Assembly: GCF_023008545.1 (NCBI RefSeq)
Contig: NZ_CP095397.1
Coordinates: forward strand, 2,715,199 to 2,779,198
DNA: 64,000 nucleotides
Reading direction: 5' to 3'
DNA from: Natribaculum luteum
Lineage (GTDB): Archaea; Halobacteriota; Halobacteria; Halobacteriales; Natrialbaceae
Position numbers and translations under genes: made by a program. Numbering within the stretch: the stretch's first letter is position 1; the number at the start of each line of letters is the position of its first letter. Under the pieces are notes generated by a model. The model was not told the origin of the DNA and did not search any database. It saw only the letters and a list, made by a program, of their open reading frames with translations. Of the stretch, positions 9,746 through 43,256 are shown in pieces.

Positions 9746-9828
9746 ACCGGCCGTACACCGCGTCTCGTCAAATGGGTTTCCCCGGACCCCGACTCGAGTC
9801 GGTGAGACGAGGGCGACGACCTCGAGTG

Positions 9829-10867: not shown

Positions 10868-10920
10868 ACGGACACGAAGAACGGCCGTCGTAAAAACGTC
10901 CGCGAGGCGTGCTCGAGTGG

Positions 10921-11040
10921 GTTCATACTGCCGGACAACACGGTTCAGACATCGATCGCACTCGAGACGCTGTCGTCGCTGACGACAGCCGTCGAGACGC
11001 GATCGAGTAGTCACTGACTGTTGTCCGGTAGTATCAGAAC
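10921..11040. repeat. Family-A nested palindromic element, copy A1, about 120 bp.
   Basis: About 90% identical to 29477..29592 in inverted orientation. Outer arms gttcTGAtactaccggacaac / gttgtccggcagtatgaac. Inner perfect 9-bp inverted repeat gctgtcgtc-agc-gacgacagc. The TGA in cTGAtac is the stop codon of fhs. Confidence 0.75.
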
Positions 11041-12758: not shown

Positions 12759-12915
12759 ACCCGATCGTACGAGGGCCGGGGACAAACGTTCTGGCTGCCG
12801 TTCTCGTTCGACGGGAACGACGACCGAATCGGCCACGCGGACAGTCGCTTTCGTCGACTCGTGTGAACCCTTTTGGCCGTTCGAGGCGAAGATCGGCTGT
12901 ACAGCGGGTGTAAGT

Positions 12916-13128
12916 ATGGAAAAGAACGTGGGCGGGATCGATCGAACCACACGCATCGTCGTCGGAGCGTTCCTCACTGTCGCCGGAGTCGCCGGACTGG
13001 CCGGCTACTGGGCCGTCGGCATCGCGATCGGTGTCGCAGCGCTTCTGGTCGGAGTGATCCTCGTCGTGACCGGTACGACCCAGAAGTGCCCGATCAACGA
13101 AGCCGCAGGCGTCGACACGACTCGGTGA
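12916..13128 (+). CDS. DUF2892 (YgaP-like) small membrane protein.
   Basis: GGIDRTTRIVVGAFLTVAGVAGL signature followed by two TM helices. 70 aa. Confidence 0.65.
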   Translation: MEKNVGGIDRTTRIVVGAFLTVAGVAGLAGYWAVGIAIGVAALLVGVILVVTGTTQKCPINEAAGVDTTR

Positions 13129-13251
13129 CGGATCGACGGCGCGTCGGCGCTCGAGAGCGCTCGAGACGCACCGAATAGACGTAGTCGGCAGACGGCCAAT
13201 CGAATCGCCGGGGACCACAGATTCTTGCCCGATCGTTGCGAGTGTCCGTGC

Positions 13252-14220
13252 ATGGCCGACGAGTTCGACGTCCTCGTGCTCCGCAAGGGGACGCACGGAA
13301 CGCCAGTCGAGGAGTACGCAGCGGCGATCAGAGAGCGACTGCCCGAGACGGACGTTCGCCTCGCACGGACGCCCGCCGAGGAGCGCGAGGCGATCCGGGA
13401 CGCGCGGTTCGTCACCGGCATGACTCTCGAGGAGGAGCTGCTCGAGACCGCCGCCGACCTCGAGGTCTTCGCGTGTGCCTACGCGGGGACGGGTCACCTC
13501 CCGCTCGAGCGCCTCCGGGAACGGGGCGTCACGGTGACGAACGCCTCGGGCGTCCACGGGCCGAACATGGGCGAGCACGTCCTCGGGTCGATCCTCTCGT
13601 TCACCCGTCGGTTCCACGTGGGCGCGCGCCGACAGCGACGCCGGGAGTGGCGCCACTACCGGGCCCACGAACTCCAGGGATCGACCGTCACCGTGGTCGG
13701 ACTCGGCGCGATCGGGCGGGCGGTCGTCGAGCGCCTCGAGCCCTTCGGCGTGGAGACGATCGGCGTCCGGTACACCCCCGAGAAGGGTGGGCCAACCGAC
13801 GAGGTGGTCGGCTTCGACGACGACGCCGTCCACGACGCGCTCGCACGAACGGATTACCTCGTGCTCGCGTGTCCGCTGACGGACGCGACGCGCGGGTTGA
13901 TCGACCGCGAGGCGTTCGTCACGCTGCCGCCGGAGTCGGTGCTCGTGAACGTCGCTCGCGGCCCCGTCGTCGACACCGACGCACTCGTCGAGGCGCTTCG
14001 GTCGAACTGGATCCGCGGGGCCTCTCTCGACGTCACCGATCCCGAACCGCTGCCCGAAGACCACCCGCTGTGGACGTTCGAGAACGTCCAGATCACGCCA
14101 CACAACGCCGGACACACGCCGAAGTACTACGAACGACTGGCCGACATCGTCGCCGAGAACGTCGACCGGATTCGCGAGACCAGCGAGACGGACGGTCTCG
14201 AAAACCAGGTCCTGCCCTGA
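13252..14220 (+). CDS. D-isomer-specific 2-hydroxyacid dehydrogenase (NAD-binding) family.
   Basis: NAD-binding VVGLGAIGRAVVERL and a catalytic-domain arrangement typical of the D-2-hydroxyacid dehydrogenase family. ATG 13252 gives MADEFDVLVL. Confidence 0.85.
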   Translation: MADEFDVLVLRKGTHGTPVEEYAAAIRERLPETDVRLARTPAEEREAIRDARFVTGMTLEEELLETAADLEVFACAYAGTGHLPLERLRERGVTVTNASGVHGPNMGEHVLGSILSFTRRFHVGARRQRRREWRHYRAHELQGSTVTVVGLGAIGRAVVERLEPFGVETIGVRYTPEKGGPTDEVVGFDDDAVHDALARTDYLVLACPLTDATRGLIDREAFVTLPPESVLVNVARGPVVDTDALVEALRSNWIRGASLDVTDPEPLPEDHPLWTFENVQITPHNAGHTPKYYERLADIVAENVDRIRETSETDGLENQVLP

Positions 14221-14229
14221 CTCGCGGGT

Positions 14230-14317
14230 TCATATCGCCTGCTGTACCTGTTTCCCGGCGCACCCGCAAGCCGTCCGGCGGTTGCCCCAGAACTGACGTA
14301 CAGCAGACGGTATCAGG
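14230..14317. repeat. Family-B palindromic element, copy B2.
   Basis: tcatatcgcctgctgtacctg...cccgcaagccgtccggcggttgcccc...gtacagcagacggtatcagg. It begins 9 nt after the stop of the 2-hydroxyacid dehydrogenase. Confidence 0.7.
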
Positions 14318-14477
14318 CTCCGGTCTCGCTTCCGGCGCGCTCGAGTCGACGCGGGTTTATCACATTCGAGGCCGAACCCTCGGCCAGCATGGATTCACCA
14401 CGAGTTCGTCGCGTCTCGAGGCGACACGAGAGGGCTGCACACGAGAACGACGGCGTCCACCGGGCGGTGACCTCGCG

Positions 14478-14909
14478 ATGACGCTCTCGTTCGACGGGCG
14501 GGTGATCGTCCCCGTCGCCGATCCGGACGACGCCGAACGGACCGCGGCCACGCTCGCACCGAAGATCGAACCGACGGGTACTGCCGTCGTCGTCTACGTC
14601 GTCGAGAAAGCCGGCGGCGGCATCGACAAGGCGTCGGTCGAACAGCGCGAGGGGTACGCCGAGCGGATCTTCGAGCGCGCCCGCCAGCCGCTCGAGGCGG
14701 CGGACGTCCCGGTCGAGACCGAGATTTTGTACGGGACCGACGTCGTGGAGACGATTTTCGACGGGGCGATCGACTGGGACGCGGACGCGGTGGCGTTCGT
14801 ACCGCGACAGAGCAATCGTCTCGTGGAACTGCTGACGGGCGACGTGGCCCGAAAACTGGTCAGGAACGCAGAGATACCCGTCGTCGCTCTCCCGCAGGAC
14901 GGCGAGTGA
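14478..14909 (+). CDS. Universal stress protein (UspA).
   Basis: MTLSFDGRVIVPVADPDD...AVAFVPRQSNRLVELLTGDVARKLVRNAEIPVVAL is the typical Usp fold signature. Confidence 0.8.
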   Translation: MTLSFDGRVIVPVADPDDAERTAATLAPKIEPTGTAVVVYVVEKAGGGIDKASVEQREGYAERIFERARQPLEAADVPVETEILYGTDVVETIFDGAIDWDADAVAFVPRQSNRLVELLTGDVARKLVRNAEIPVVALPQDGE

Positions 14910-14910
14910 G

Positions 14911-15945
14911 CTAGAGGTAGCCCTTCTCGAGCAAGAGTTCGCCGTTCAGGACGCTCGCGCCGGCAGCCCCGCGGATCGTGTTGTGGGCGAGACAGTTGTA
15001 CTGGAGACCGAACGTCGACTCGCGGATGCCGCCGGCGGCGATGGCCATGCCGTCGCCGAGCGTGCGGTCGAGTCGCGGCTGTGGGCGGTCGGGTTCGTCG
15101 AAGACCTCGATGAGCTGGTCGGGCGAGGACGGCAGGTCGATCGAGGGGTACTCCCGCATCGCATCGGCGGCCTCCACGGGAGTGAGTTCGTCTTCGGTCT
15201 CGACGAAGACGTTCTCGAGGTGGCCGTCGATCGTCGGGATGCGGTTACACGAGGCCCCGACCTCGACGTCGTTCAGCTCGAGTTCGGCCCCGTCGAACGT
15301 GCCGAGCAGTTTGCGCGATTCGGTCTCGAGTTTGTCCTCCTCGCCGCCGATGTAGGGGATGGCGTTGTCGATGATCTCCATCGAGGTGACGCCGTCGTAG
15401 CCCGCACCGGAGACTGCCTGCAGGGTGGCGACGTGGACGGTCTCGAGGCCGTACTCGGCGAGGGCGGCGAGCGTGGGGACGAAGGTGATCGTCGAGCAGT
15501 TCGGGTTCTTCACCATCGCGCCGTCCCAGCCGCGTTCGTCGCGCTGGACCTCGAGCAGGTCGATGTGGTCGGCGTTGACCTCGGGGATGACCAGCGGCAC
15601 GTCTTCTGCCATCCGCGCGTTCGAGGAGTTCGAGGAGAGCACGTAGCCAGCCTCACAGAAGCCGGGTTCGACCTCGGCACCGACGCTCGAGGGAAGCGAC
15701 GAGAAGAGCAGATCGACGTCGTCGGGAACCTCGTCGGGATCAGTCGCCGTGACGGTCATCTCGGCGACGTCCTCGGGAATGGGGCTGTCGACGCGCCACT
15801 TGGCCACGTCGCGGTACTGTTCGCCCGCGCTCGAGTCGCTCGCGGTGAGTGCGGCGATCTCGAAGTCGGGGTGTGGGTCGAGGAGTCCGATCAATCGCTG
15901 TCCGACGGCGCCGGTCGCGCCAAGTACGCCAACTCGTACTGCCAT
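14911..15945 (-). CDS. asd: Aspartate-semialdehyde dehydrogenase.
   Basis: MAVRVGVLGATGAVGQRLIGLL (NAD(P)-binding) and the archaeal Asd-type catalytic domain, including the active-site Cys region GASCN. Confidence 0.9.
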   Translation of the reverse strand: MAVRVGVLGATGAVGQRLIGLLDPHPDFEIAALTASDSSAGEQYRDVAKWRVDSPIPEDVAEMTVTATDPDEVPDDVDLLFSSLPSSVGAEVEPGFCEAGYVLSSNSSNARMAEDVPLVIPEVNADHIDLLEVQRDERGWDGAMVKNPNCSTITFVPTLAALAEYGLETVHVATLQAVSGAGYDGVTSMEIIDNAIPYIGGEEDKLETESRKLLGTFDGAELELNDVEVGASCNRIPTIDGHLENVFVETEDELTPVEAADAMREYPSIDLPSSPDQLIEVFDEPDRPQPRLDRTLGDGMAIAAGGIRESTFGLQYNCLAHNTIRGAAGASVLNGELLLEKGYL

Positions 15946-16121
15946 TGACGGCCCTCGGTGACGGTGGTCTAAAACCATTTGGGTCGTGTCACGGTTTGCA
16001 TCGGCCGGAACGCCGCGGTCGGCACTCGCCGGACACGAGGCGGTGGCCGACGCTCGCGATCGGCGTCGACGGGGGACGGCGTCGCAACTCGAGGGACGGA
16101 GAATCGAGACGAGAATCCAGT

Positions 16122-16313
16122 TTACGCCGGAACCTGTGCGCCCTTCTTGCGGGTGACGTAGCCCGCGATCCGGTTGCGAACGCCCTTCGAGTCGATGTTG
16201 GTCAGCTTCTCGACGCTGTCTTTGTTCTGTTCGAAGTCGGTCGTAAACGCGTCCGGGTATCGCTCGAGCAGGATGTTCCCGGTCTTCTTGACGTAGGCCG
16301 GTTTGATTGCCAT
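16122..16313 (-). CDS. rps17e: 30S ribosomal protein S17e.
   Basis: MAIKPAYVKKTGNILLERYPDAFTTDFEQNK is the classic S17e N-terminus. 63 aa. Confidence 0.9.
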   Translation of the reverse strand: MAIKPAYVKKTGNILLERYPDAFTTDFEQNKDSVEKLTNIDSKGVRNRIAGYVTRKKGAQVPA

Positions 16314-16335
16314 ACAGAGTGGTTCCGTCTAGAGG

Positions 16336-16345
16336 CCCTTATAAC
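16336..16345 (-). promoter_or_regulatory. Candidate TATA box (ccTTATAAcg) for rps17e, at about -27 from the start codon.
   Basis: The only AT-rich hexamer in a GC-rich spacer. The spacing suits a leaderless archaeal mRNA. Confidence 0.4.
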
Positions 16346-16375
16346 GCACCATTTCTGCTGATCGACGACCCGGGT

Positions 16376-16462
16376 TCATACGGACCGCTGTAAGTACTTA
16401 CCGCAGCGACCGCCCGACGGGACGCGGTCGCTGCGGAAAATAGTTACAGCAGACCGCATCAG
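16376..16462. repeat. Family-B palindromic element, copy B3.
   Basis: ttcatacggaccgctgtaag ... perfect 13-bp inner stem ccgcagcgaccgc/gcggtcgctgcgg ... ttacagcagaccgcatcag. The minus-strand cTGAtgcgg supplies the stop of the antiporter gene. Confidence 0.75.
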
Positions 16463-17688
16463 TCGTCCGACTGGATCACGCCGAGTGCGGCCGCGATCTG
16501 TCTCGCGAAGCCCGCCTCGACGACGACCGTCACGAGGATGACCAGAAAGACCGTGCCGAGCAGGACCTCCGCACCCGCGGGATCGGAGGGCGGCGTCTCC
16601 GTCTCGAGGCGGATGGCAAAGAGGGTCGCGACCGATGCGGGGACGATCCCCCGAGGCCCGACGAAGCTGATGAACAGCCGTTCGTGGGTCGAGAACCCTC
16701 CACCGGCCGTCGAGACGAAGACGAGCAGCGGGCGAAGCAGCAGCGTCAACACGGCGACGACCGCGAGGCCGGCGACGCCGAGCGCGAGGAGTTCCGAGAA
16801 CTCGAGCAACGCCGCGAGCGTGATGAAGACGAACGAGAGGACGAGCAGCGTCACGTCCTGGTTGAACTGCAGGATGCTCTCCCGGTGGGGGAGTTCGAGG
16901 TTCCCGAGGGTAAAGCCCGCGGTGGCTGCGGCCGCGATGCCGGCCTCCGAGAACACCGAGTCCGCGATCGCAAAGGCGACGACTGCTCCGGCCAGCGCGA
17001 GTAACCGGGCCGTCTGTGGTGCCGCCTGCTCCGGGAGGTCGACCCGCGTGAGGAGATACCAGACGACGCCCGCGATCGCGAGGCCGGTGAGGATTCCCAT
17101 CCCGAGGCGCTGTGCGAACAGGAAGACGTACCCTCTTGGCGCGAGTTCCTGGGCCGTCATCGCCTTGAAGAGGACGATCGCGAGGATCGCCGCGGTGACG
17201 TCGTTGACGATCCCTTCTGTCTCGAGCGTCGTCGCGACCTCCTCGCGGACGGGAACGACCGCGAGGATCGGCGTGATGACCGTCGGCCCGGTCGCGACCA
17301 GCAGCGCGCCGACGAGAAGCGAGACGTCCAGACTCGCCCCGAGCAGGAGCCGGACGGTCAGGGCGGTCCCGACGAACGCCATCGCCGCGCCGACCGTGAT
17401 CAACCACCAGACCGCCCGCGGTGCGTTTCGGACGGTCTCGTGCTCGAGTCGGAACGATCCCTCGAAGACGATGATGGCGACGCTCACCCCGACGATCGTC
17501 GAGAGCGCCTCCCCGAAGGTGTCGGTCGTGATGACGCCGAGTCCCTCGGGGCCGATGGTGACGCCCGCGACGATGAGAAACAGCACGCTGGGGACGCGGT
17601 ACTTCGCGGCGAGAAACTGGGCTGTGACGCCGAATGCGACGATGGCCGCGACGAGCGCGATGAGGTCGAGGTCGACGTGGACGGACAC
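16459..17688 (-). CDS. Na+/H+ (monovalent cation:proton) antiporter, CPA1/NhaP-like.
   Basis: 409-aa polytopic membrane protein with motifs typical of the sodium/hydrogen exchanger family (GPEGLGVI, FEGSFRL). Confidence 0.75.
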   Translation of the reverse strand: MSVHVDLDLIALVAAIVAFGVTAQFLAAKYRVPSVLFLIVAGVTIGPEGLGVITTDTFGEALSTIVGVSVAIIVFEGSFRLEHETVRNAPRAVWWLITVGAAMAFVGTALTVRLLLGASLDVSLLVGALLVATGPTVITPILAVVPVREEVATTLETEGIVNDVTAAILAIVLFKAMTAQELAPRGYVFLFAQRLGMGILTGLAIAGVVWYLLTRVDLPEQAAPQTARLLALAGAVVAFAIADSVFSEAGIAAAATAGFTLGNLELPHRESILQFNQDVTLLVLSFVFITLAALLEFSELLALGVAGLAVVAVLTLLLRPLLVFVSTAGGGFSTHERLFISFVGPRGIVPASVATLFAIRLETETPPSDPAGAEVLLGTVFLVILVTVVVEAGFARQIAAALGVIQSDD

Positions 17689-17900
17689 CGGTTCACCGAC
17701 CCCCTCGACTGCGACGTTCGACGTGGTACTCGTCGGACGAACTGCCGATCCGCCATCGCGAACCGTGCGTCACGGCCGCCCGGCGCTGGCCGGATGTCGC
17801 GACCGACATGGCCCGTGCTACGACACCCACCGACAAAATCCTCATCCCCTTCCGCACGTGGGGGTCCACCTGCAGTCGATCCACCGCGGTCGCGGGAACT

Positions 17901-19307
17901 ATGTACGCGCCGCCCCGACCACACGACGTGGCTCCGATCGAACTCGAGTACGAAGACGGGACGATCCGCGTCGACGGCGGCGACGCACTCGAGGCGATCC
18001 CGTGGCTCGAGGCCGACCAGCGAACGGGAGGCCGTCGCGCGCCGGCGTACCGATACGCCGACCTCCGCGCAACGCTGGACGACAGCGGCCTCGAGTACGT
18101 CGATCGCGTCCTCGACCTCGATTCCCTCTCGGCGCTTCACTCGGCGTACGAACTGCGGTCCTACCAGCGCGAGGCGCTCGACGACTGGCTCGCGACCGAT
18201 CGCTGGGACGGCCGCGAGACCTCGACGCGAGCGCCAGCGGGCGTGCTCGAGTTGCCGACCGGCAGCGGGAAGACGGTCGCCGCGCTGAAGGCGATCGAAC
18301 GGCTCGCCGTGCCGACGCTCGTGGTCGTTCCCACGATCGACCTGCTAGAGCAGTGGGCACGCGAACTCGAGCGGGAGTTTTCGCTCCCGGTGGGACGGTT
18401 CGGCGGCGGCGAACAGCGACGCGAGGCGATCACGGTCTCGACGTACGACTCGGCGTACCTGAAAGCCGACGTCGTCGGCGACCGGTTCGGCTGCGTCGTC
18501 TTCGACGAGGCCCACCACCTCGGCGGCGAGGGCTACCGGGAGATCGCCCGCCTGCTCGCCGCTCCCGCACGGCTGGGTCTCACCGCGACGTTCGAACGCC
18601 CCGACGGTGCACACGAGGTGATCGAGGACGTCGTCGGGCCGCGCTGTCACCGCGTCGCCGTCGACGAACTCGCCGGCGACCACCTCGCCGACTACGACGT
18701 CAAGCGACTCGAGGTGTCGCTGATGCCCGAAGAACGCGAGGAGTACGACCGGAACCAGGAGGTGTTTACGAACTACCTCGCACGGTCGAACCTCCAGCTT
18801 CGAAGCGGCTCGGACTACCGGGAACTGGTCAAACGCTCCGGCTCCGATCCCAGGGCGCGCGAGGCCCTGCTCGCCAAACAGCGCGCCCGCGAGATCGTCT
18901 TCGGCAGCGAGGCGAAAGTCGACGCGCTCGAGGAGATCCTCGACGACCACCGCGACGATCGGACCATCGTCTTCACCGCGTACAACGACCTCGCGTACGA
19001 CGTCGCCGAGCGGTTCCTGATCCCGGCGATCACCCACCAGACGGGGGCGAGCGAGCGCCGAGAGATCTTGGAGCGGTTCCGCGAGGGAACCTATTCGCGC
19101 GTGGTGACCTCGAACGTACTCGACGAGGGCGTCGACGTACCCGACGCCAACGTCGCGGTCGTGCTCTCGGGCAGCGGCAGCGAGCGCGAGTTTACCCAGC
19201 GCCTCGGTCGCATCCTCCGGCCGAAAGCCGACGGCGGCCGCGCCCTGCTGTACGAGGTCGTCAGCGGCGATACCGCCGAGGAACGCGTCGCCGACCGCCG
19301 TCACTGA
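17901..19307 (+). CDS. XPB/Rad25-type SF2 DNA repair helicase.
   Basis: Helicase motif I (LPTGSGKT), motif II (DEAHH), and LTATFERPDG. An N-terminal damage-recognition-like domain is present. A Bax1 gene follows. Confidence 0.85.
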   Translation: MYAPPRPHDVAPIELEYEDGTIRVDGGDALEAIPWLEADQRTGGRRAPAYRYADLRATLDDSGLEYVDRVLDLDSLSALHSAYELRSYQREALDDWLATDRWDGRETSTRAPAGVLELPTGSGKTVAALKAIERLAVPTLVVVPTIDLLEQWARELEREFSLPVGRFGGGEQRREAITVSTYDSAYLKADVVGDRFGCVVFDEAHHLGGEGYREIARLLAAPARLGLTATFERPDGAHEVIEDVVGPRCHRVAVDELAGDHLADYDVKRLEVSLMPEEREEYDRNQEVFTNYLARSNLQLRSGSDYRELVKRSGSDPRAREALLAKQRAREIVFGSEAKVDALEEILDDHRDDRTIVFTAYNDLAYDVAERFLIPAITHQTGASERREILERFREGTYSRVVTSNVLDEGVDVPDANVAVVLSGSGSEREFTQRLGRILRPKADGGRALLYEVVSGDTAEERVADRRH

Positions 19308-19423
19308 TCCGACTGCCGGACTACTCGAGTATCGTGCCGACTGCACCAGCCGCACAGCAACCGTGCTCGTCGAACGGCCGCGTCCGGGTGACTTTTGGCG
19401 ACGTCGCTCCCACCAGTGAGTAG

Positions 19424-20965
19424 ATGCTGACGAAGGACCTGTTGCGCGTCTCTCGGGCCGGCGGTGGCTTCCACCCGCAGTTCGCCGGACGCGAACACCG
19501 GCCGCTTGCCGCCCGGGTCATCGGAACGTTCCAGGGCCACGTCGGCGAATCGCGCGAGCGCCTCGAGTCCGCGCTCGCCGATCTGGAGCGCGACGCGGAC
19601 GACTACAAACTCGTCCGCGGCTTCGCGGCGCTGCTCGAGCGCGAGTCGACTTTCGAGACGCGGGCAGCGATCGATCCCGTCCGGGCGCGCCGAGCGACGT
19701 TCCGGGCGGCCGAGGCCGTCGGCGTCGTGACGGCCGACGAGCGGGAGACGGCACTCGAGCAGGTGGGCGAGTCACTCGGCGTCTCGGCAGACGACCTCGA
19801 GGCGTCGCTGTACGCCGACCTCGACGAGCGACAGGTCCTCGCGGCGGTCGACTCCCGGTGGGACCCCGACGGCCTGGTCGCCCAGTACAACCTCTCGCTG
19901 GCCCAGACGGCGCTGTTCGACGCGACCGAAGTCCGGGTACGCTCGAGCGATCCGAAGGCGCTCGTCTCGGCGATCAAGCGCCTCCGGCTGATGTACGAGA
20001 TTCGAAAGACGGCAGCCGGACGCGAGGTCGTCGTCACGGGCCCGACGCACCTCTTTCGGGCCACGCGCCGGTACGGGACGCGCTTCGCTCGCCTGCTCCG
20101 GACGGTAGCCAGAGCCGAGGAGTGGCACCTCGAGGCGACGATCGACGACCGGGGCACCGAACGTCCGCTCGACCTCTCCCACGAGGATCCGATTCGCGTC
20201 CCCGACGCCGCCCCCGTCGCGACGGTGTCGTTCGACAGCGGCGTCGAGGCCGACTTCGCCGCTCGATTTTCGAACCTCGATCTCCCGTGGGACCTCGTTC
20301 GCGAACCCGAACCGCTCGCGACGGGAACCCGGGTGATGATCCCCGACTTCGCGTTCGACTACCGCTACGGGCGTCCCGACTCGAGCGCAGCGAACGAGTC
20401 ATGCGACGGCGACTTTCGCGTCTACTTCGAGATCATGGGCTTCTGGACGCCCGAGTACGTCGAGAAGAAGCTCTCGCAACTCGAGTCGGTCGAAGACGTG
20501 GACCTGCTTGTGGCCGTCGACGAGTCGCTGGGCGTCGGCGAGGAGATCGCGGCTCGCGACCACCGGGCGATCCCCTACACCGACACCGTCCGCGTCAAGG
20601 ACGTCGTGGACGTTCTCCGGGAGTACGAACGGGACCTGGTCGCCGAAAGCGCCGCCGCCCTGCCCGACGAACTCGTGCCCGACGAGGACGTGATCTCCCT
20701 CGCCGACCTCGCGGCCCGACGCGGCGTCAGCGAGGAGGCGCTCGCGGACGCGTCGTTTCCCGATCACGAACTCGTCGGCCGGACGCTGGTCCGCCCTCGC
20801 GTCCTCGAGGACCTGGCCGACGACCTCGAGGCGGGAATGGCACTCGGGGACGCCGAGGCGATCCTCGACGACGCCGGCCTGACGGATTCGAGCGCGGCGC
20901 TGTCGCGGCTCGGCTACCGCGTCGAGTGGGAGGGGCTGTCGGGCGGGACCGTCCGCGAACGTTGA
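19424..20965 (+). CDS. Bax1-like (DUF790) nuclease partnering XPB.
   Basis: 513-aa protein directly downstream of XPB. Its N-terminal region MLTKDLLRVSRAGGGFHPQFAG resembles archaeal Bax1. Its size fits. Confidence 0.7.
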   Translation: MLTKDLLRVSRAGGGFHPQFAGREHRPLAARVIGTFQGHVGESRERLESALADLERDADDYKLVRGFAALLERESTFETRAAIDPVRARRATFRAAEAVGVVTADERETALEQVGESLGVSADDLEASLYADLDERQVLAAVDSRWDPDGLVAQYNLSLAQTALFDATEVRVRSSDPKALVSAIKRLRLMYEIRKTAAGREVVVTGPTHLFRATRRYGTRFARLLRTVARAEEWHLEATIDDRGTERPLDLSHEDPIRVPDAAPVATVSFDSGVEADFAARFSNLDLPWDLVREPEPLATGTRVMIPDFAFDYRYGRPDSSAANESCDGDFRVYFEIMGFWTPEYVEKKLSQLESVEDVDLLVAVDESLGVGEEIAARDHRAIPYTDTVRVKDVVDVLREYERDLVAESAAALPDELVPDEDVISLADLAARRGVSEEALADASFPDHELVGRTLVRPRVLEDLADDLEAGMALGDAEAILDDAGLTDSSAALSRLGYRVEWEGLSGGTVRER

Positions 20966-21066
20966 TCTGACGGCGCGGCCGATCGGCAGCGAGTTCGACT
21001 CGAGCAACCACGACTGGGCCTTTTTGGTCGTTGCCGGTGTACGACGGTCGACGAGGGAGATCTCGA

Positions 21067-21906
21067 ATGGATACTTCGCGACCCGAACGAGGCCAGTTGC
21101 TGGACGAGTTTCCGTACGTTCGAGTCGGCGACGGCCCACGCACGCTCCTCCTGATTCCCGGCATCGGCGACGCGCTGTTCGACGGCGAGTACGGTCAGCT
21201 CGCCTCCTGGGGTCTCCGGGCGTTTCTCCGTGAGTACGTCGACGACCACACGGTGTATCTGGTGAGTCGACCGCGTGGACTCGCCAAGGGAACGTCGATC
21301 CGGGACATGGCACGCGACTACGGCCGCGTCCTCGACGAGGAGCTCGGCCCCGCGTCGGTGATCGGGGCCTCGATGGGCGGACTGATCGCACAGGACCTCG
21401 CGATCGACCGACCGGATCTGGTCGATCGGCTCGTCCTCGCCGTCTCCGGCTGTCGGGTCGCAGCCGAGAGCGTGCCGACGATCCGTCGGAACCGCCGACG
21501 GGCGCTCGAGCACGACTGGACGGCGCTTCGCAGCGAACTGCTCCGGGAACTTTACACCGGCTGGCGGCGCGCGGTCTATCCGCGACTCTCGCGGACGATC
21601 GGCCGCGTTCGACCGCCGAACCCCGCCGATCCGCTCGACGTCGTCGTCTCGATCGACGCCGTCCTCGAGTTCGACAGCCGGGAGCGACTCGAACGGATCC
21701 ACGCACCGACGCTGGTCATCGGGGGGACCGACGATCTCTACTTTCCAGAGCCGATCCTCCGAGAAACCCACGAGGAGATCCCTGACGCACAGCTAGCGAT
21801 GTTTCGCGAGGTCCGCCACGGTGCGTTCCTCGAGCGGAAGGCGGGGTTCGACAACTGGGTCACTCGATTCCTCACGAGCGAGCCGACGCAGGTCTCCTAC
21901 GGGTGA
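21067..21906 (+). CDS. Alpha/beta-fold hydrolase.
   Basis: Nucleophile elbow GASMGG and an alpha/beta-hydrolase domain order with Asp/His downstream. Confidence 0.75.
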   Translation: MDTSRPERGQLLDEFPYVRVGDGPRTLLLIPGIGDALFDGEYGQLASWGLRAFLREYVDDHTVYLVSRPRGLAKGTSIRDMARDYGRVLDEELGPASVIGASMGGLIAQDLAIDRPDLVDRLVLAVSGCRVAAESVPTIRRNRRRALEHDWTALRSELLRELYTGWRRAVYPRLSRTIGRVRPPNPADPLDVVVSIDAVLEFDSRERLERIHAPTLVIGGTDDLYFPEPILRETHEEIPDAQLAMFREVRHGAFLERKAGFDNWVTRFLTSEPTQVSYG

Positions 21907-21916
21907 GGTCTCGCAC

Positions 21917-23182
21917 TCAGCCTTCGTCGATCGAGAGCACGCGACCCGCGGCGACCGTCTGGCCCATGTCGCGAATGGCGAAACTCCCGAGTTCGGGGAT
22001 CTCGCTCGAGGGCTCGACGCTGAGCGGTTTCTGCGGGCGGACGGTCACGATGGCGGCGTCGCCCGACTGGATGAAGTCGGGGTTCTCCTCTTCGACCTCG
22101 CCGCTCGAGGGATCGATCTTCTGGTCGATCGTCTCGAGCGTGCAGGCGACCTGTGCCGTGTGGGCGTGGAAGACCGGCGTGTACCCCGCGGTGATGACCG
22201 AGGGGTGTTGCATGACGACGATCTGGGCCTGGAAGGTCCGTGCCACGGTCGGCGGGTCGTCGGCCGGACCGCAGACGTCGCCGCGACGAATGTCGTCTTT
22301 GCCGATGCCGCGGACGTTGAACCCGACGTTGTCGCCGGGTTCGGCGCGGGGAATCTCCTCGTGGTGCATCTCGATCGTCTTGACCTCGCCGCCGACATCG
22401 CTGGGCTGGAAGGAGACGGTGTCGCCGATTTCCATGACGCCAGTCTCGACCCGCCCGACGGGAACGGTACCGATGCCCGAGATGGTGTAGACGTCCTGGA
22501 TCGGCAAGCGAAGCGGCGCGTCTGTCGGGGGTTCCGTCTCCGGCAGGTCGTTCAGGGCGTCGAGGATCGTCGGCCCGTCGTACCACGGCGTGTTCTCGGA
22601 GAGTTCGGCGACGTTGTCGCCCTCGAACGCCGAGATCGGGATGAAACTCGCGTCCTCGGTGGCGAAACGGACCTGATCGAGCAGGGCCTTGACCTCCTCG
22701 ACGACCTCGCGATAGCGGTCCTCGTCGTAGTCGACGACGTCCATCTTGTTGACGCCGACGATCAGTTCGTCGATGCCGAGCGTCCGTGCCAGGAAGACGT
22801 GCTCCTGGGTCTGGGGTGCGACGCCGTCGTCTGCGGCGACGACGAGGACGGCGTTGTCCGCCTGCGACGCCCCTGTGATCATATTCTTCACGAAGTCGCG
22901 GTGGCCGGGCGTGTCGACGACCGTGAAGTAGTAGACGTCGGTTTCGAACTCCTGGTGGGCGATGTCGATCGTCAGGCCGCGTTCTCGCTCTTCGGCCAGA
23001 TTGTCCATCACGTAGGCGAACTCGAAGCCGCCCTTGCCTTTCTCCTCTGCTTCCTCGCGATGCTGTTCGATGACGTGCTCGGGGATGCTCCCCGTCTCGA
23101 ACAGCAGTCGGCCGACCAGCGTCGACTTTCCGTGGTCGACGTGGCCGATGATCGCCAGGTTCTGGTGTGGTTTATCTACCAT
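21917..23182 (-). CDS. tuf: Translation elongation factor 1-alpha (aEF-1alpha).
   Basis: [27 protein letters not shown]. Near-identical across its length to haloarchaeal EF-1alpha (421 aa). Confidence 0.97.
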
Positions 23183-23270
23183 TTCGATCCCCTCGAGTAC
23201 TATGGTACGTGACACCAGGGCAAAACGCTTGATGGACACCCAACATATTTGAAGGGATTGTCGCGGCCGG

Positions 23271-24164
23271 TTAGGGCTCCCCGTCGGCCATCGGCACGCA
23301 CAACACCGGCACAGAGGCGTTGCGAACGACGTTCTCGGTGACGCTTCCGAGAAGGCGTTGTTTGACGCCGGACCGCCCGTGGGTACCCATAACGACGAGG
23401 TCGACGTCTTCGTCCTCGACGTACGTCAGGATCACCCGCGATGGGGGACCGCTGGCCACCGTTCCCGTGACGCTGACGTCTGCCTCGAGCGCGCGTTCTC
23501 GCACCGTCGCGAGCGCACCCTTCCCCTGTAACTCGAGCGCCTCGAAGATCTCGTCTGCTCCCTCGCCGCTCACCAGCCGGCTCGTGTCGGCCGAGTACAG
23601 CGCGTGGACCATCGCGTCGAACGCGTCCGCCAGCGTGACGCCCCACTCGACTGCGACCGCTGCCGTCTCGCTCCCGTCGGTCGGCAACAGAACGTCGTCG
23701 TAGTCGTAGCCGTCTGCTGGCGTGTCGCCTGCTGCTGGCGGGACCGCGAGTACCGGCGAACTCGTCGTCCGGAGAACGTTCTCGGTGACGCTGCCGAGTA
23801 GGACCCGCTCGAGGCCTGTCCGGCCTTTCGTCCCCATCGCGACGACGTCGACGTCGTGCTCGTCGGCGTACGCGCCGATGATCTCGAACGGAACGCCGCG
23901 CTCGACTGCTGTGGTGGCGTCGACGCCCGCGTCCCGGGCGAGCGTCGCGACCGCGTCGACCGCTCGCTCGGCCTCGCGCTCGAGCGGCGACTGGCCGTCA
24001 CCGTCGAACTCGAGGGCTTCGGCGGCGTGGGTCACGTCGACGACCGAGAGGACGTGGACGTCTGCGTCGACCGTGCTCGCGAGGTCGATCCCCCGCCTCG
24101 CACCGGCGAGTGCGCCCTCGCTCCCGTCGGTGGGGATCAGGACCGACTCGATGGATCGGTTCAT
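23271..24164 (-). CDS. Tandem-domain universal stress protein.
   Basis: Two Usp domains ([16 protein letters not shown]...; [13 protein letters not shown]...). Confidence 0.8.
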
Positions 24165-24238
24165 GTCACGACGGTACGACGTCGACGTACAAGATACTAC
24201 GTGGCGACGTCACGTCGGCCGAACGGCGAGCCGCTCCG

Positions 24239-24781
24239 CTACGTTCGACCGGCGAGGTCGCGCCGTCTCCCTTTCGGTACCAGCGAGCGCAACTCGCCGT
24301 GGAGGTAGAGTCCGACGCCGAGCGGTTCGCGCTCGCCTGCGACCGTGTGGGCGGCGATCAGGTACCCCCAGTCGCCGTCCCACTCGAGGTCCTGGTCCTC
24401 GCCGGCGACGAACCGCCGCGCCTGCTCGCGGGTCAGGTCGATCACGCAGTCGGTCGCGTGTCCGCCAAAGCGCTGGACGAAGTCGGTCGTCGGCTTCCAG
24501 TGTTCCTGGCGCGTCCGCAGGCAGGTCATCCCGAGTGCCTCGAGTTCGACCGGCGTCGGCGACTCGCCCGCGTAGATCCAGATCTTTCCTGCTCCTTTCT
24601 CCCAGAACGTGTGGTCGTCGAAGGTTTCTGGCGGAATGCCGAACCGGTCCGCGAAGTACTCGAGGGTCTCCGCACGGCTCACCCGTCCCTCGACGGTCCG
24701 CTCGTCGGCCGTCGCCGGCAGTCGATCGAACCGCTGGCCGACGTTCTCCTCGAGGTCGCCGTCGCCCGCGTCACCCGACAT
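24239..24781 (-). CDS. RsmF-type methyltransferase C-terminal (PUA-like) domain, encoded as a separate protein.
   Basis: Its start codon overlaps the Sun-family methyltransferase stop as ATGA. The sequence (WEKGAGKIWIYAGESP...LEWDGDWGYLIAAHTVAG) resembles the C-terminal RNA-binding domain normally fused in RsmF-like enzymes. Confidence 0.45.
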   Translation of the reverse strand: MSGDAGDGDLEENVGQRFDRLPATADERTVEGRVSRAETLEYFADRFGIPPETFDDHTFWEKGAGKIWIYAGESPTPVELEALGMTCLRTRQEHWKPTTDFVQRFGGHATDCVIDLTREQARRFVAGEDQDLEWDGDWGYLIAAHTVAGEREPLGVGLYLHGELRSLVPKGRRRDLAGRT

Positions 24782-25689
24782 CAGGCGGTCACCTCCAGTT
24801 TCGCGACGAAGAAGCCGCCCGTGTCGTTGTGGTGTGGGTAGATTCGCATCGCCCGCTCGAGGCTCGAGTCGTACGCCTCGTCGTCCCACTCGGTGAGTCC
24901 GGGCGCGTACTCGAGGTCGGCGTCGGCGTCGACGACGCGACAGTCCTCCTCCTCGAGGACGTAGTCGACGACGGCCTCGTTCTCCTCGGGGGCGAACGTA
25001 CAGGTCGAGTAGACGACGGACCCGCCCTCGCGGGTGGCCTGGACCGCCCGCCGGAGGATCCCCTTCTGGATGCCCGAGACGGACTTGACGTGACCGACGG
25101 ACCAGTCACAGAGCGCGTCGGGGTTCTTCCGGATCGTTCCCTCGCAGGAACACGGCGCGTCGACGAGCGACCGGTCGAACTCGTCGAACGCGAGGGGCTT
25201 CATCGAGAAGTTGCGCGCGTCCTGGTTGGTCACTGCGATCGAGGTCACACCGAGGCGTTCGGCGTTGAACCGCAGCGCCGAGAGTCGCCCGAGGTTGCTG
25301 TCGTTGCCCACGACGGTTCCCCGGTCGTCCATCAGTGCCGCGAGCTGGGTCGTCTTCCCGCCCGGAGCGGCACAGGCGTCCCAGACCCGGTCGCCGGGCT
25401 CGGGGTCGAGGACGACCGGCGGCACCGCCGACACCTCCTCCTGTCCGTGCGTGAACCCGTGGTACGACGCCCAGGTCGACCCCGGCGAGTCGGTCTCGAG
25501 ACGCAGGACCCGCGGGTTCCACGCTGCCTGGTCGTACTCGACGCCCTCCTCGTCCAGCGTGGCCGTCGCCCGCTCGACGCTCGCCTTGATCGTGTTCACG
25601 CGGACGGCGTTGCCGAGCGGTCGCCGACACGCCTCGAGGAAGGCCTCGAAGTCGTCGACGATCGGTCGGTACCGCTCGAGTGGCTCCAT
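24781..25689 (-). CDS. NOL1/NOP2/Sun-family RNA (cytosine-C5)-methyltransferase.
   Basis: SAM-binding motif DACAAPGGKT, DAPCS, and the catalytic Cys in STCT. Confidence 0.85.
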   Translation of the reverse strand: MEPLERYRPIVDDFEAFLEACRRPLGNAVRVNTIKASVERATATLDEEGVEYDQAAWNPRVLRLETDSPGSTWASYHGFTHGQEEVSAVPPVVLDPEPGDRVWDACAAPGGKTTQLAALMDDRGTVVGNDSNLGRLSALRFNAERLGVTSIAVTNQDARNFSMKPLAFDEFDRSLVDAPCSCEGTIRKNPDALCDWSVGHVKSVSGIQKGILRRAVQATREGGSVVYSTCTFAPEENEAVVDYVLEEEDCRVVDADADLEYAPGLTEWDDEAYDSSLERAMRIYPHHNDTGGFFVAKLEVTA

Positions 25690-25951
25690 TGCTCGCCTGT
25701 TCGGTCGCTCGCCGTTTGTGGGTTTCGAAGCGGGGGCGGTCCGACGTCCCAGGAGTAGCGCCCGCGCCGTCGACGGCGTGACCTCGAGAACGGGCACGAG
25801 AGTGGTGACCGGCACCGAACCGAGGCTGGCGACGCGAGACGGTGACTGATGACGTGGCAGGTCGTCTCGTGACCCGTTTCTCGTCGTTTTTCCGGCGTCA
25901 GAACGGATCCTGCCCATTTTTTATCGTGGGACCGCTCCGGGAGCGATAGAG

Positions 25952-27322
25952 ATGTCTACGGAAAGTCACGACGTAGTGGTCATCGGCGGCGGAACCGCCG
26001 GCTGCTTCGCCGCGGCGACCGCTGCCCAGGAAGGGGTCGACGTCGTCCTCCTCGAGCGCAAGACCGAGGAGGAGGCGGGACACATCGCCTGTGGCGACGG
26101 AATCAAGGGCGCGAGTGCGTTTCCCGACGTCGTCGACCGCGACCGGCTCGACGAGGAGGCGTTTACCAACCGGAACATCAGCAGGGCGATCTTCGAGAAT
26201 CCCCAGACCGGCGAGTCGATCGACGTCCCGTTCGACGAGTCCGGCGGCGTCGTCGACCGCTGGACGTACGGGCGGGTGCTCCTCGACGAGGCCGACCGTG
26301 CCGGCGCGGAGATCCACTACGAGACGGTCGTTCAGGACGTCGTCCAGCCCGACGATCGGGTCGAGGGCGTGACGGCGATGCGGAACGGAGAGCCAGTCAC
26401 GTACGAGGCCGACGTCGTCGTCGACGGGGCGGGATCGCTCTCGTTGCTCCAGGACAGGATCGACTTCTCCGGGTCGACGTTCGACACCAACGTCACCTAC
26501 CAGCAGTTCTGCTCTGCCTATCGTGAGATCCTCGAGGTCGACGACCCCGTCGACTGGGACGACGCGCTGGTGTTCAAGCCCACCGAGGAACTGGGCTACC
26601 TCTGGTACTTCCCGCGCTCCTCGACGGAGATCAACGCCGGGCTGGGCTTTCAGATGAACAAGCCGCCGATGAAACTCGTCGAGGACCTCAAACGCGACCT
26701 CGAGACCCGACCCGAGTTCCGGAACGCGACAGTGACGGACAAACTGGGTGCCGCTCTCCCGACCCGGCGGCCCTACGACTCGGCCGTCCATCCGGGGTAC
26801 GTCGCCGTCGGCGACGCCGCAGCCCACGTCAATCCCTGTACCGGCGGCGGGATTCCGGGCGCGGCGAAGGCGGGCCACTGGGCGGCGGAGGTCGCCATCG
26901 AGGCGATCGGCGACGGCGACGTCGGCGAGGCCGCGCTGTGGGAGTACAACCGACGCGTCCAGACCGGCTTCGGCAAGCGCTTCGCCGCGATGGACCTCTA
27001 CAACATTTTCGGCGGCGCTCACGACGTCGACGAACTGGTCTCGGTGATCACCTCGTTGCCCGGCCAGCAACTCGTCGACGCCATCGGGAAACGGGGCACT
27101 GCCTCCATGGGGCTCGGCCTGAAGCTCAAGACGATCCTGAAGACGTTCGGCCACTGGGACGTCCTCTACGAACTCTACAGGGTCCAGAGTCTCGCCGCCG
27201 ATCTCAAAGACGTCTACGACTCCTACCCGGGCGACCCGGCCTACTTCGACGCCTGGCAAAAAGAGCGCGACGCCGTCATGGACCGACTGTACGACGTCAC
27301 GGGTGCGGAGCCGAAGTACTGA
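25952..27322 (+). CDS. Geranylgeranyl reductase family FAD-dependent oxidoreductase (digeranylgeranylglycerophospholipid reductase-like).
   Basis: FAD-binding VVVIGGGTAGCFAA and GD motif. The 456-aa length is typical of haloarchaeal GGR. Confidence 0.8.
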   Translation: MSTESHDVVVIGGGTAGCFAAATAAQEGVDVVLLERKTEEEAGHIACGDGIKGASAFPDVVDRDRLDEEAFTNRNISRAIFENPQTGESIDVPFDESGGVVDRWTYGRVLLDEADRAGAEIHYETVVQDVVQPDDRVEGVTAMRNGEPVTYEADVVVDGAGSLSLLQDRIDFSGSTFDTNVTYQQFCSAYREILEVDDPVDWDDALVFKPTEELGYLWYFPRSSTEINAGLGFQMNKPPMKLVEDLKRDLETRPEFRNATVTDKLGAALPTRRPYDSAVHPGYVAVGDAAAHVNPCTGGGIPGAAKAGHWAAEVAIEAIGDGDVGEAALWEYNRRVQTGFGKRFAAMDLYNIFGGAHDVDELVSVITSLPGQQLVDAIGKRGTASMGLGLKLKTILKTFGHWDVLYELYRVQSLAADLKDVYDSYPGDPAYFDAWQKERDAVMDRLYDVTGAEPKY

Positions 27323-27345
27323 TACTATCTGACAATAGCCAGTAC
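27316..27345. repeat. Short hairpin starting with cTGAtac at the geranylgeranyl reductase stop. It is a minimal family-A/B-like terminus.
   Basis: gtacTGAtactatctgacaatagccagtac, with arms gtactg/cagtac. The TGA is the stop codon of the geranylgeranyl reductase. Confidence 0.5.
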
Positions 27346-27432
27346 GTACTCGAGAGCGACTCGCCCTGTCGGACGGCGAACCGCTGGCCGCGATCCCAAC
27401 CCCTTTTCCCACCGGTCGACTACCCGTCGGCG

Positions 27433-28266
27433 ATGACAGACGAGATCCCCGTCGATCGCTACCCGACAGCCAACGGCATGCCGGTCCTCGGACTCGGCAC
27501 GTGGCAGAACACCGACCCCGAGCAGTGCGCCGAGAGCGTCCAGACCGCACTCGAGGTCGGCTACCGCCACGTCGACACCGCACAGGCCTACGACAACGAG
27601 GAGGCCGTCGGTGACGGACTCGCGGCTGCCGACGTCGATCGCGAGGACGTCTTCCTCGCGACGAAGGTCTGGAACTCGAACCTGGCGTCCGACGACGTCC
27701 TCGAGACGGCGCGGGCGAGTCTCGATCGGCTCGGCGTCGATTACGTCGACCTGCTGTACGTCCACTGGCCGGCGGGTCCGTACGACGCCGAGGAGACGCT
27801 GCCGGCGTTCGAACAGCTGTACGACGAGGGGCTGATCGAACGGGTCGGTGTCAGCAACTTCACGCCCGACCTCCTCGAGGAAGCGGTCGACGTCTGCGAC
27901 GTGCCGATCTTCGCCAACCAGGTCGAGCTACACCCGCTGCACCCTCAGGAGGAGCTTCGCGAGGCGTGCGAGCGCCACGACGTCGAGGTCGTCGCCTACT
28001 CGCCGCTGGCGCGCGGCGAGGTCTTCGACGTGCCCGAGATCCAGGAAATCGCGGCCAAACACGACGCGAGCGAGGCGCAGGTCAGTCTCGCCTGGCTCCG
28101 CGAGAAAGGCATCACTGCGATCCCCAAGGCGACGAGTCAGGCCCACGTCGAGGACAACTGGCGGTCGCTCGACCTCGAGCTAGACGACGAGGATGTCGAG
28201 ATGATCGACGCGATCGACCGCACGGATCGCCAGGTCGATCCGGACTTCGGTCCCTGGAACCGATGA
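27433..28266 (+). CDS. Aldo/keto reductase.
   Basis: LGLGTWQ...GYRHVDTAQAYDNEEAVG...VSNF motifs characteristic of the aldo/keto reductase superfamily. Confidence 0.85.
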   Translation: MTDEIPVDRYPTANGMPVLGLGTWQNTDPEQCAESVQTALEVGYRHVDTAQAYDNEEAVGDGLAAADVDREDVFLATKVWNSNLASDDVLETARASLDRLGVDYVDLLYVHWPAGPYDAEETLPAFEQLYDEGLIERVGVSNFTPDLLEEAVDVCDVPIFANQVELHPLHPQEELREACERHDVEVVAYSPLARGEVFDVPEIQEIAAKHDASEAQVSLAWLREKGITAIPKATSQAHVEDNWRSLDLELDDEDVEMIDAIDRTDRQVDPDFGPWNR

Positions 28267-29476: not shown

Positions 29477-29592
29477 CTGTTACTACTGGACAACGGTCAG
29501 TGACTACTCGATCGCGTCTCGCCGTCTGTCGCCGCTGGCGACAGCGTCTCGAGTGCGATCGATGCCTGAACCGTTTTGTCCAGCAGTATGAC
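29477..29592. repeat. Family-A nested palindromic element, copy A2.
   Basis: About 90% identical to the reverse complement of 10921..11040. The terminal TGA is degenerate here (ctgttac). Confidence 0.75.
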
Positions 29593-42574: not shown

Positions 42575-43144
42575 TTGAATCGTCCCGCCGCCGTATCGGC
42601 GAACGTGACAGAGTACGACGCAGTCGTCTACGACCTCGACGGGACGCTCGTCCGCCTCGACGTCGACTGGGACGCGGCGGCCGTCGACGTCCGCGAGGTG
42701 TACGAGGAGGCGGCCATCGACCCGCCCAGCGACGACCTCTGGGACCTGCTCGCGCTCTCGGAGGAGGTCGGCCTGGACGAAGAAGTCGAGGCGGTACTCG
42801 CCGCCCACGAACGCGACGGAGCGCGCACCTCGGAGCAACTCGCACACGCAGACGAGTTACTCGCCCGCGAGGGGCCCGTCGGCGTCTGTTCGCTCAACTC
42901 CGAGGCAGCCTGTCGCCTCGCCCTCGAGAGACACGGCTTGCTCGAGGCGGTCGACGTCGTTGTCGGACGGGACACGGTCACCAACCGGAAACCGCACCCG
43001 GAGCCGCTACTCGTGGCCGTTCGCGCGCTGTCGGTCGAACCGGAGCGGACGCTGTTCGTCGGCGACTCCGCGCGCGACGAGGAGACGGCGAAACAGGCGG
43101 GGACGGATTTCGAGTACGTCGGCGACGGTCCCTCCGGCCACTGA
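42575..43144 (+). CDS. HAD-family phosphatase.
   Basis: DAVVYDLDGTLV motif I and VGDSARDEETAKQAG motif IV. Confidence 0.75.
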   Translation: MNRPAAVSANVTEYDAVVYDLDGTLVRLDVDWDAAAVDVREVYEEAAIDPPSDDLWDLLALSEEVGLDEEVEAVLAAHERDGARTSEQLAHADELLAREGPVGVCSLNSEAACRLALERHGLLEAVDVVVGRDTVTNRKPHPEPLLVAVRALSVEPERTLFVGDSARDEETAKQAGTDFEYVGDGPSGH

Positions 43145-43230: not shown

Positions 43231-43256
43231 TGTCGGCCGACGGGACGACTGGACGA

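Follow-up and report, generated by a model that had tools for sequence, protein, structure and literature searches.

Palindromic elements at TGA codons in Natribaculum luteum: a putative truncated relic behind the geranylgeranyl reductase gene and a probable chance resemblance behind XPB

The DNA considered here is a 64,000-nucleotide stretch from Natribaculum luteum, referred to throughout as the window, with a G+C content of 64-72%. Its genes include one for a geranylgeranyl reductase (GGR), whose protein is 100% identical to WP_265781585.1 (Natribaculum luteum, Natrialbaceae) and which is followed by an aldo-keto reductase (AKR) gene, and one for an XPB helicase with 97% identity to the XPB of N. 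breve. DNA of N. breve, a sister of N. longum, is colinear with window positions 7775-25734 at ~95% identity. These and more distant relatives were compared as numbered loci (L002, L016, and so on), 80 of which were taken into a survey of the XPB stop. A preliminary description of the window had pointed to the ends of GGR and XPB as short hairpins, beginning with cTGAtac and cTGAtcc, respectively, and had taken them for degenerate or minimal members of two families of stop-associated hairpins, A and B. Both sequences are present where that description placed them, directly after the TGA stops of the two genes: window 27316-27345 reads GTACTGATACTATCTGACAATAGCCAGTAC, and window 19303-19340 reads ACTGATCCGACTGCCGGACTACTCGAGTATCGTGCCGA. 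What these gene ends are depends on what the full-length elements are, and the elements are presented first.

Sequences starting with cTGAtac proved to be the left ends of long palindromic elements that form two families: family A, with a length of 108 nt, and family B, of ~80 nt, which consists of 36-nt arms and a 10-nt loop. The 64-kb window contains seven full copies, two of family A and five of family B (Table 1), and all full family-A copies have a length of 107 to 108 nt. Copies in the window are bounded as TGA/TAC...GTA/TGA (slashes mark the element ends), with the exception of copy A2, which has TGT on its left. The TGA on the flanks forms a direct repeat lying outside the inverted repeat, and the base that follows it is variable (T/G/A), with no fixed tetra- or pentanucleotide target evident. 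The inverted repeats of both families extend to the termini of these 80- to 108-nt elements, which have no coding capacity. The folding energy of full copies amounts to -57 to -63 kcal/mol, with z-scores of -6.7 to -7.5 relative to shuffled sequences. A covariance model (CM) was built from nine diverse family-A copies and comprises 37 pairs, of which 13 show compensatory changes. This model also detects four of the five family-B copies in the window, at 17.5 to 24 bits, the fifth (9835-9913) scoring 11.2 bits (E = 2.1), and the two families therefore share an architecture.

Copies of A and B were found in at least 10 genera, also on megaplasmids, and occupancy varies between species. Family A is present in Natribaculum, Natronorubrum, Natrialba, Natrononativus, Natronolimnohabitans, and Natrinema; family B is present in these same genera and also in Haloterrigena, Halobiforma, Natronococcus, Halomontanus, Haloarchaeobius, and Haloarcula. 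A search of Rfam 15 returned no match in the window at gathering thresholds and none at E <= 1 for the regions 9780-11080 and 27280-27460. The literature that we searched contains no account of a haloarchaeal repeat that targets stop codons.

The nature of the insertion site can be read from pairs of relatives in which the same site is filled in one organism and empty in the other. In Natrinema hispanicum (L016), the filled site reads ...cccgtTCA[element]TCAatcgatcg, where TCA is the stop of a minus-strand gene; its empty counterpart in Haloterrigena sp. H1 (L015) reads ...cccacTCAatcgat (in a longer reading, ...cccacTCAatcgatcg) and has a single TCA. The filled site of Natronococcus roseus (L004) reads gacgacTGA[element]CGAacgcg, and the empty counterpart in Natronococcus jeotgali (L007) reads gacgacTGAac, in full gacgacTGAacccgg. 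These two clean pairs show that A and B are insertions at TGA, in that an empty site holds one TGA, and in a filled site a TGA borders the element left and right. The target TGA is often the stop of a gene, and a TGA is left on each side, so that the host gene keeps its stop. A target duplication of TA, following an IS630/mariner-like parse (TGA-TA-C...G-TA-TGA), was ruled out by the empty sites, which contain one TGA or TCA and no TA. For the four elements upstream of XPB no empty sites were found; synteny there extends only to N. breve and N. longum, in which each of the four is filled.

Insertion shows a strong preference for stop codons. Among 30 full copies, 16 have as their left TGA the in-frame stop of a long open reading frame (ORF) rich in G+C at third codon positions (family B, 14 of 20), against an expected share of only ~18-30% for stops among harmless TGAs. 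Of the 50 genes called in the window, 30 end in TGA; the stop is followed by TAC in five cases and by TCC in one (XPB), with a chance expectation for T(A/C)C after a TGA stop of 3.3% x 30, or about one. All five TGATAC stops, that of GGR included, belong to family A or B elements. The bare heptamer CTGATMC, with 14 matches in comparison to 9.1 +/- 3.0 expected, shows no enrichment. The seven cases of cTGAt(a/c)c at a stop that had been counted in the preliminary description thus become five intact elements, one relic (GGR), and one case that most likely reflects chance (XPB), while the site listed there as the seventh, at 14316 on the minus strand, is the flank of an element rather than a credible gene's stop. 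The target TGA is preceded by GAC in roughly half of the family-B copies (...gacgacTGA), a codon that stands before only 2 of the 30 TGA stops in the window, which suggests that the target is possibly longer than TGA itself. It was also considered whether the GTA/TGA terminus serves as a systematic source of the ATG of downstream genes; this idea was set aside, a plausible ORF being found there in only 3 of 30 copies.

The sequence following the GGR stop resembles the 5' portion of family A from its first base onward. An nhmmer model built on the family-A copies of the window itself matched 27320-27371 with 21.1 bits (E = 1.1e-5; next background match, 0.1). With a second, flank-free hidden Markov model (HMM) derived from the nine diverse copies, the GGR end of N. 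luteum scored 9.9 bits (E = 0.058) and the orthologous sequences of N. breve and N. longum scored 12.8 bits (E = 0.007). In all three species the flank-free match covers model positions 1 to 49/51 and begins directly after the stop, and the versions found in N. breve and N. longum (TGATACTATCGGACAACAGCCAGT...) are nearer to the family-A consensus than that of N. luteum. A position-specific scoring matrix (PSSM) for the terminal 16 nt of family A, based on nonwindow copies only, was scanned over ~128,000 positions of the window; position 27323 ranked 6th with 14.3 bits, below four true termini and a match at 8891. The GGR end is the top noncanonical match in the two sequence models and the terminus PSSM. 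It is extremely improbable that this similarity arose by chance. The shortness of the region and the E value of the N. luteum copy on its own under the diverse model would speak for such an origin; the distance between the nhmmer match and the next background match, the agreement of three different models, the start of the alignment at model position 1 exactly after the TGA stop, and the closer approach of N. breve and N. longum to the consensus all speak against it. The match at 8891, with 14.5 bits (8891-8906, TCCTGCTGGAAGACAG, within the 8565-9257 region), is the best PSSM match in the window that adjoins no stop.

The 3' arm of family A is absent from this site. The last ~47 nt of the GGR-AKR spacer have no similarity to that arm (P = 0.13-0.24) and have a homolog in Natrononativus amylolyticus, namely, the 3' ~47 nt of a 67-nt GGR-AKR spacer that lacks the element, with the T-rich box included. 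The idea that the whole spacer is a decayed full A copy was rejected on these grounds. No right-boundary TGA was found for the GGR copy; the sole TGA nearby overlaps the start of AKR (ATGA, 27434-27437), whose ATG is ancestral, being present in Natrononativus. In other genera the GGR genes end in PKY followed by TAA, TAG, or TGA, with no element. As judged from these alignments, the results show the GGR end to be the truncated 5' part of a family-A element, inserted before the split of N. luteum, N. breve, and N. longum and abutting the original spacer. Because the 3' arm is missing, the hairpin-aware CM gives only a background score (10.7 bits, E = 2.9) and for the whole spacer the fold is no better than in shuffled sequence (z = +0.5). 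The kinship of the GGR end with family A that had been proposed earlier is thereby borne out by the HMMs and the PSSM, whereas its description as a minimal member of the family is not.

Across the three Natribaculum species the GGR-AKR spacer is 97% conserved. The remnants of N. luteum and N. breve differ at 3 of 62 nt, compared with a neutral third-position identity of 0.908 (P = 0.17), so the remnant appears to drift neutrally, with no sign of constraint. The 30-mer at 27316-27345 can be folded into a marginal mini-hairpin of -6.9 kcal/mol (z = -2.4; 5 of 200 shuffles were equally good), the inner stem of which depends on two substitutions specific to N. luteum, and the same 30-mer in N. breve reaches -4.3 kcal/mol (z = -0.8). 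The GGR end is a relic and not a minimal functional hairpin.

The XPB end presents a different case. The nhmmer and HMM scores are at background level there (0.8 to 2.7 bits, E = 10-21), the CM returned no match at E <= 10, and neither the 38-mer (z = +0.63) nor the whole spacer (z = +0.32) folds better than shuffled sequence. The window has one TGATCC stop, that of XPB, which is the number predicted by chance. The preliminary description had seen in "ccggac...actactcga" an echo of the family-A core. In N. breve and N. longum, XPB is separated from the DUF790 (Bax1-like) gene by a 168-amino-acid Glyoxalase_4-family gene that is convergent to XPB. N. luteum lost ~560 nt together with this gene (window 19322-19343 versus L002 11596-12185 and L089 11424-11930), and an 11-nt filler remains. 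The sequence common to the three species stops at ...ccggac, and the filler follows in N. luteum at the deletion junction; the supposed echo is therefore a juxtaposition of unrelated pieces joined by a lineage-specific deletion. Moreover, CTCGAG is 13-fold overrepresented in the window, with 578 occurrences versus 44 expected from base composition, as are the longer strings ACTCGAG (120 versus 7 expected) and TACTCGA (33 versus 3.7 expected), and short motifs containing CTCGAG are for this reason unreliable in the N. luteum genome. These comparisons show that the apparent resemblance of the XPB end to family A rests on CCGGAC plus the hyperabundant CTCGAG.

There is a narrower form of the proposal for XPB, in which its end would be a genuine relic, a family-A terminus (T[ccg]ACTGCCGGAC) cut down to a ~14- to 17-nt stub by loss of the rest of the element in the ancestor that the three Natribaculum species share. 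The segment ACTGCCGGAC (19312-19321) is identical to 10 nt of the family-A terminus with a 3-nt offset from the stop, and 12 of 14 positions of the cross-genus terminus consensus match from 19311 on, 4 nt after the stop. The sequence is kept in N. breve and N. longum, and similar stubs occur at other stops (43228; Natrononativus L094). However, the PSSM score of 9.7 bits ranks only 13th, with six apparently random matches at least as good in 128 kb, and the match is offset from the TGA, whereas verified copies and stubs all begin immediately after it. HMM and CM scores are at background level, and among relatives at 80 loci no family-A copy was found at the XPB stop. We regard such a stub as rather unlikely, although a real chance of it is left by the exact 10-mer; most likely the XPB end is not a family-A remnant and its resemblance is due to chance. 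In the search with covariance and hidden Markov models, the GGR end thus rose above background with the HMMs but not with the CM, and the XPB end remained at background with both. In Natrinema (L054 11490-11600; L005 ~2900-3010), the gene convergent to XPB ends in a GAC-TGA stop that is followed by a diverged A copy, ~100 nt past the XPB stop.

It may also be asked whether both ends are degenerate or minimal hairpins that are nevertheless functional, for example, as signals for transcript 3' ends or for stability. Both sequences directly follow a TGA stop, the GGR 30-mer has a somewhat better fold than shuffled versions of it, and a weak bias toward the sense strand is seen in intact family-B copies: in 15 of 21 this strand is the more stable one, with 58 G-U pairs versus 35 (p ~0.04; the copies are not all independent). 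Family A shows no such bias. Against a function at these two gene ends stand the dependence of the GGR inner stem on N. luteum-specific substitutions and the drop of this fold to z = -0.8 in N. breve, the positive z-scores of the XPB segment and of both whole spacers, the lack of excess conservation, the background CM scores at both ends, and the origin of the XPB motif in a lineage-specific deletion. A scan for hairpin-plus-T-run terminators, which used a bacterial-type consensus and to which archaeal oligo-T termination is external, gave no sites at 27200-27500 or at 19200-19480. Functional hairpins at these ends are accordingly very improbable. The term "short hairpins" in the preliminary description holds weakly for GGR and does not hold for XPB.

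The copies themselves turn over and decay, as can be observed at several orthologous sites. At two gene ends with identical flanks, the families have been exchanged: at one of them, B in N. luteum stands opposite A in N. breve and N. longum, and at the other, A in N. luteum stands opposite a B variant in those two (window 9830-9916 and 10921-11036; L002 ~2050-2163 and 3169-3255; L089 1879-1986 and 2995-3081), in each case with exact TGA/.../TGA bounds. Such a family swap is either a site-specific replacement or repeated reuse of one stop codon. Truncated forms occur as well. The family-A stub at 43228 (Table 1), where N. breve reads TACCGCCGGCC, suggests successive insertions into one HAD hydrolase stop. 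In Natrononativus amylolyticus (L094 1738-1760), the HAD hydrolase stop is followed by a solo relic, TGA/GACGGTTTGCTGTGCC, which is a ~19-nt family-B terminus; a DUF5822 gene starts 20 nt after the HAD stop and cuts this terminus off, while Natribaculum has a full B copy at the same stop. These two stubs show that truncated remnants at stops are a normal part of the A/B system. Stubs of the family-B terminus were looked for at the other stops of the window, and none were found.

Two further rearrangements were seen in N. longum. Upstream of GGR (L083 2637-2815), an A copy breaks at an internal TGA (...GATCGATGTC-TGA), and a B variant starts at that point and closes with another TGA; the remaining part of the A copy is missing, an arrangement that amounts to a nested or chimeric insertion. 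In the B copy at 16373-16461, N. luteum and N. breve share the apical segment GCGTCCCGTCGGGC, of which N. longum has the reverse complement (CCCGACGGGACGC, L089 8393-8480), and the loop of this orthologous copy is therefore flipped within the palindrome in N. longum. The occurrence of family A in both orientations had been considered as an argument for a true target duplication, and this argument is weakened by the internal flip.

Table 1. Positions of A and B elements, putative remnants, and adjoining gene-end segments in the window
Feature	Position	Strand	Remarks
A1, reference full family A	10923-11036	-	TGA (= stop of ORF 11034-12977), palindrome 10926-11033, TGA; CM 124.5 bits; -63.3 kcal/mol, z = -6.7
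A2, reference full family A	29478-29591	+	TGT, 108 nt, TGA; sits between convergent genes, not at a stop
Family B	9830-9916	-	Left TGA = stop of ORF 9914-11014
Family B	14227-14315	-	8 nt 3' of the stop of + strand gene 13129-14220; truncated in N. breve and N. longum
Family B, TGATGC start	16373-16461	-	At Na+/H+ exchanger stop; same copy in all three Natribaculum species
Family B	43142-43230	+	At HAD hydrolase stop; N. breve has a copy too; fold z = -7.5
Family B	56590-56678	+	At stop of ORF 55132-56592
Second family-A terminus stub, TACTGTCGGCCGAC	43228-43243	+	Right after the right TGA of the B copy 43142-43230; PSSM 13.5 bits, rank 7
TGA stop of GGR (ORF 25952-27322)	27320-27322	+	Left flank, presumed insertion target; model alignment begins at next base
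Putative truncated 5' portion of a family-A element	27323-27384	+	Secure for 27323-27371 (model positions 1-51 of 108); weak apex similarity to ~27384
Ancestral GGR-AKR spacer	27385-27433	+	T-rich box CCTTTTCC (~27401-27408), ~29 nt 5' of the AKR ATG at 27434
XPB stop (19305-19307) and 14-nt post-stop spacer tccgactgccggac	19305-19321	+	Conserved in N. breve and N. longum
Filler "tactcgagtat," specific to N. luteum	19322-19332	+	Junction of ~560-nt deletion; source of the "actactcga" echo

Taken together, we consider it probable that A and B are palindromic mobile elements inserting at TGA, that the GGR end is a truncated family-A relic, and that the XPB end is not a member of either family. 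The course of events would then be as follows. Small, noncoding palindromic elements of at least two families would insert at TGA in Natribaculum and other Natrialbaceae, with a TGA left on each side and the stop of the host gene retained. One family-A element would have inserted at the GGR stop before the three Natribaculum species diverged; its 3' arm would have been deleted later, leaving ~50-60 nt that can no longer form the family hairpin. At XPB, an ancestral post-stop spacer would have been joined to filler from the N. luteum-specific deletion of the glyoxalase-family gene. The simplest mechanism of mobilization may be one in trans, by a transposase making a 3-bp staggered cut at TGA.

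Several observations weigh against this explanation. The clean empty/filled pairs number only two, and a third comparison is not clean: A2 is missing at the orthologous site of N. longum (L083 ~6515-6539), where gatccCAActtctc, with CAA as the empty site, stands opposite gatccTGT[element]TGActgctc of N. luteum. Plasmid records searched with both families yielded no transposase or autonomous element with the same termini, and the matches cover ordinary ends of coding sequences. At GGR, the N. luteum copy taken by itself does no better than E = 0.058 under the diverse flank-free HMM, and at XPB the exact 10-mer with 12 of 14 terminus positions matched has a post hoc p of ~0.03-0.05. The weak sense-strand bias of family B leaves room for RNA-level selection on intact copies, and it is possible that intact copies have been exapted at the RNA level.

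A different mode of transposition could also place the elements beside TGA. In this scheme a single-strand HUH enzyme, of the IS200-IS605 type or RAYT-like, would recognize the hairpin, and the element would carry its own terminal TGA. A single long hairpin makes up the entire element, IS200/IS605 elements and noncoding derivatives of them abound in haloarchaea (PMC3119063), and an element with its own TGA set beside a TGA fits the empty/filled pairs as well as a duplication does. The orientation of family B relative to the TGA is, in addition, nearly uniform. Family A, by contrast, is found in both internal orientations relative to TGA...TGA (6 versus 3), a point weakened by the occurrence of internal flips, and both families have true terminal inverted repeats, unlike the subterminal hairpins of IS200/IS605 elements and PATEs (PMC3119063). 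The variable base after TGA, with no fixed tetra- or pentanucleotide target evident, also argues against such an enzyme. On balance we consider an HUH-type origin unlikely and favor insertion with duplication of the TGA.

Among described systems, haloarchaeal MITEs (miniature transposable elements with inverted repeats) offer a close parallel in general form. Like A and B, they are short, noncoding, and multicopy and have terminal inverted repeats, presence/absence polymorphism, a short direct target repeat at both ends, and truncated and nested copies. A and B differ in being wholly palindromic rather than having two short terminal inverted repeats around unrelated DNA, and their fixed trinucleotide TGA, usually a stop codon, differs from the target duplications of haloarchaeal MITEs, which are 5-8 bp or longer and variable. 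In the plasmid records, moreover, no transposon with termini related to A/B was found. The term "MITE" is used for A and B by analogy and does not denote a demonstrated relationship. SMR-A resembles A and B in its size (~110 bp), prominent inverted terminal repeats, many copies, strong target preference, and lack of a known related transposase. As described, it is set apart by having no target duplication and by targeting the near-terminal palindromes of IS605-type elements and PATEs and not stops. Transposons of the IS5 family (IS1031/IS427 type) and of the PIF/Harbinger type produce 3-bp TNA duplications and typically have termini beginning with GA or GG. MITEs of these types share with A and B the 3-bp T-N-A duplication; their termini are unlike TAC...GTA, and no such transposase is linked to A/B.

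The attC sites of integrons are imperfect palindromes of 57-141 nt that lie directly after the cassette ORF and are recognized as folded single strands. Different attC sequences can hold equivalent positions, as do A and B. However, the R''/R' core sequences (RYYYAAC / GTTRRRY) are absent from the A/B ends by inspection, and the genes flanking A and B are housekeeping genes in conserved synteny, not cassettes. REP/RAYT systems, in which RAYTs mobilize REP and REPIN elements, have been described for bacteria (PMC3116915, PMC3733652). REP sequences, too, are extragenic palindromes concentrated at gene 3' ends, and REPINs form long hairpins of ~100 nt; they differ from A and B in having a GTAG or CGTC tetranucleotide and fully inverted termini (PMC3116915, PMC3733652), where A and B have TAC...GTA with a direct TGA. 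PATEs derived from IS200/IS605 have subterminal palindromes, no terminal inverted repeats, and no target duplication (PMC3119063), and in A and B the inverted repeats extend to the termini and TGA is present on either side.

These comparisons lead to a broader proposal, which we put forward tentatively and with somewhat less than even confidence. A and B may be previously undescribed haloarchaeal mobile hairpins that target TGA stops, often GAC-TGA, and regenerate the stop by duplication, which would allow them to colonize the ends of essential genes harmlessly. Their turnover would be fast enough to swap families at orthologous sites between species that are ~95% identical. The GGR end, the stub at 43228, and possibly the XPB end would then be fossils, and intact copies might have been exapted as structures of 3' untranslated regions.

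By themselves the GGR and XPB sites matter little, one being a neutral fossil and the other probable noise, but both help to define the element family. Relics of this kind are missed by covariance models of the intact hairpin and are found by sequence models and terminus PSSMs. If confirmed genome-wide, A and B would constitute a clear case of an archaeal mobile element with a "safe-harbor" target at gene ends. They would also account for many hairpins that look conserved in 3' regions of haloarchaea and that an annotation might otherwise list as terminators or small RNAs, and the progression from intact copy to half copy to terminus stub would provide a dated series with which the decay of an element could be measured.

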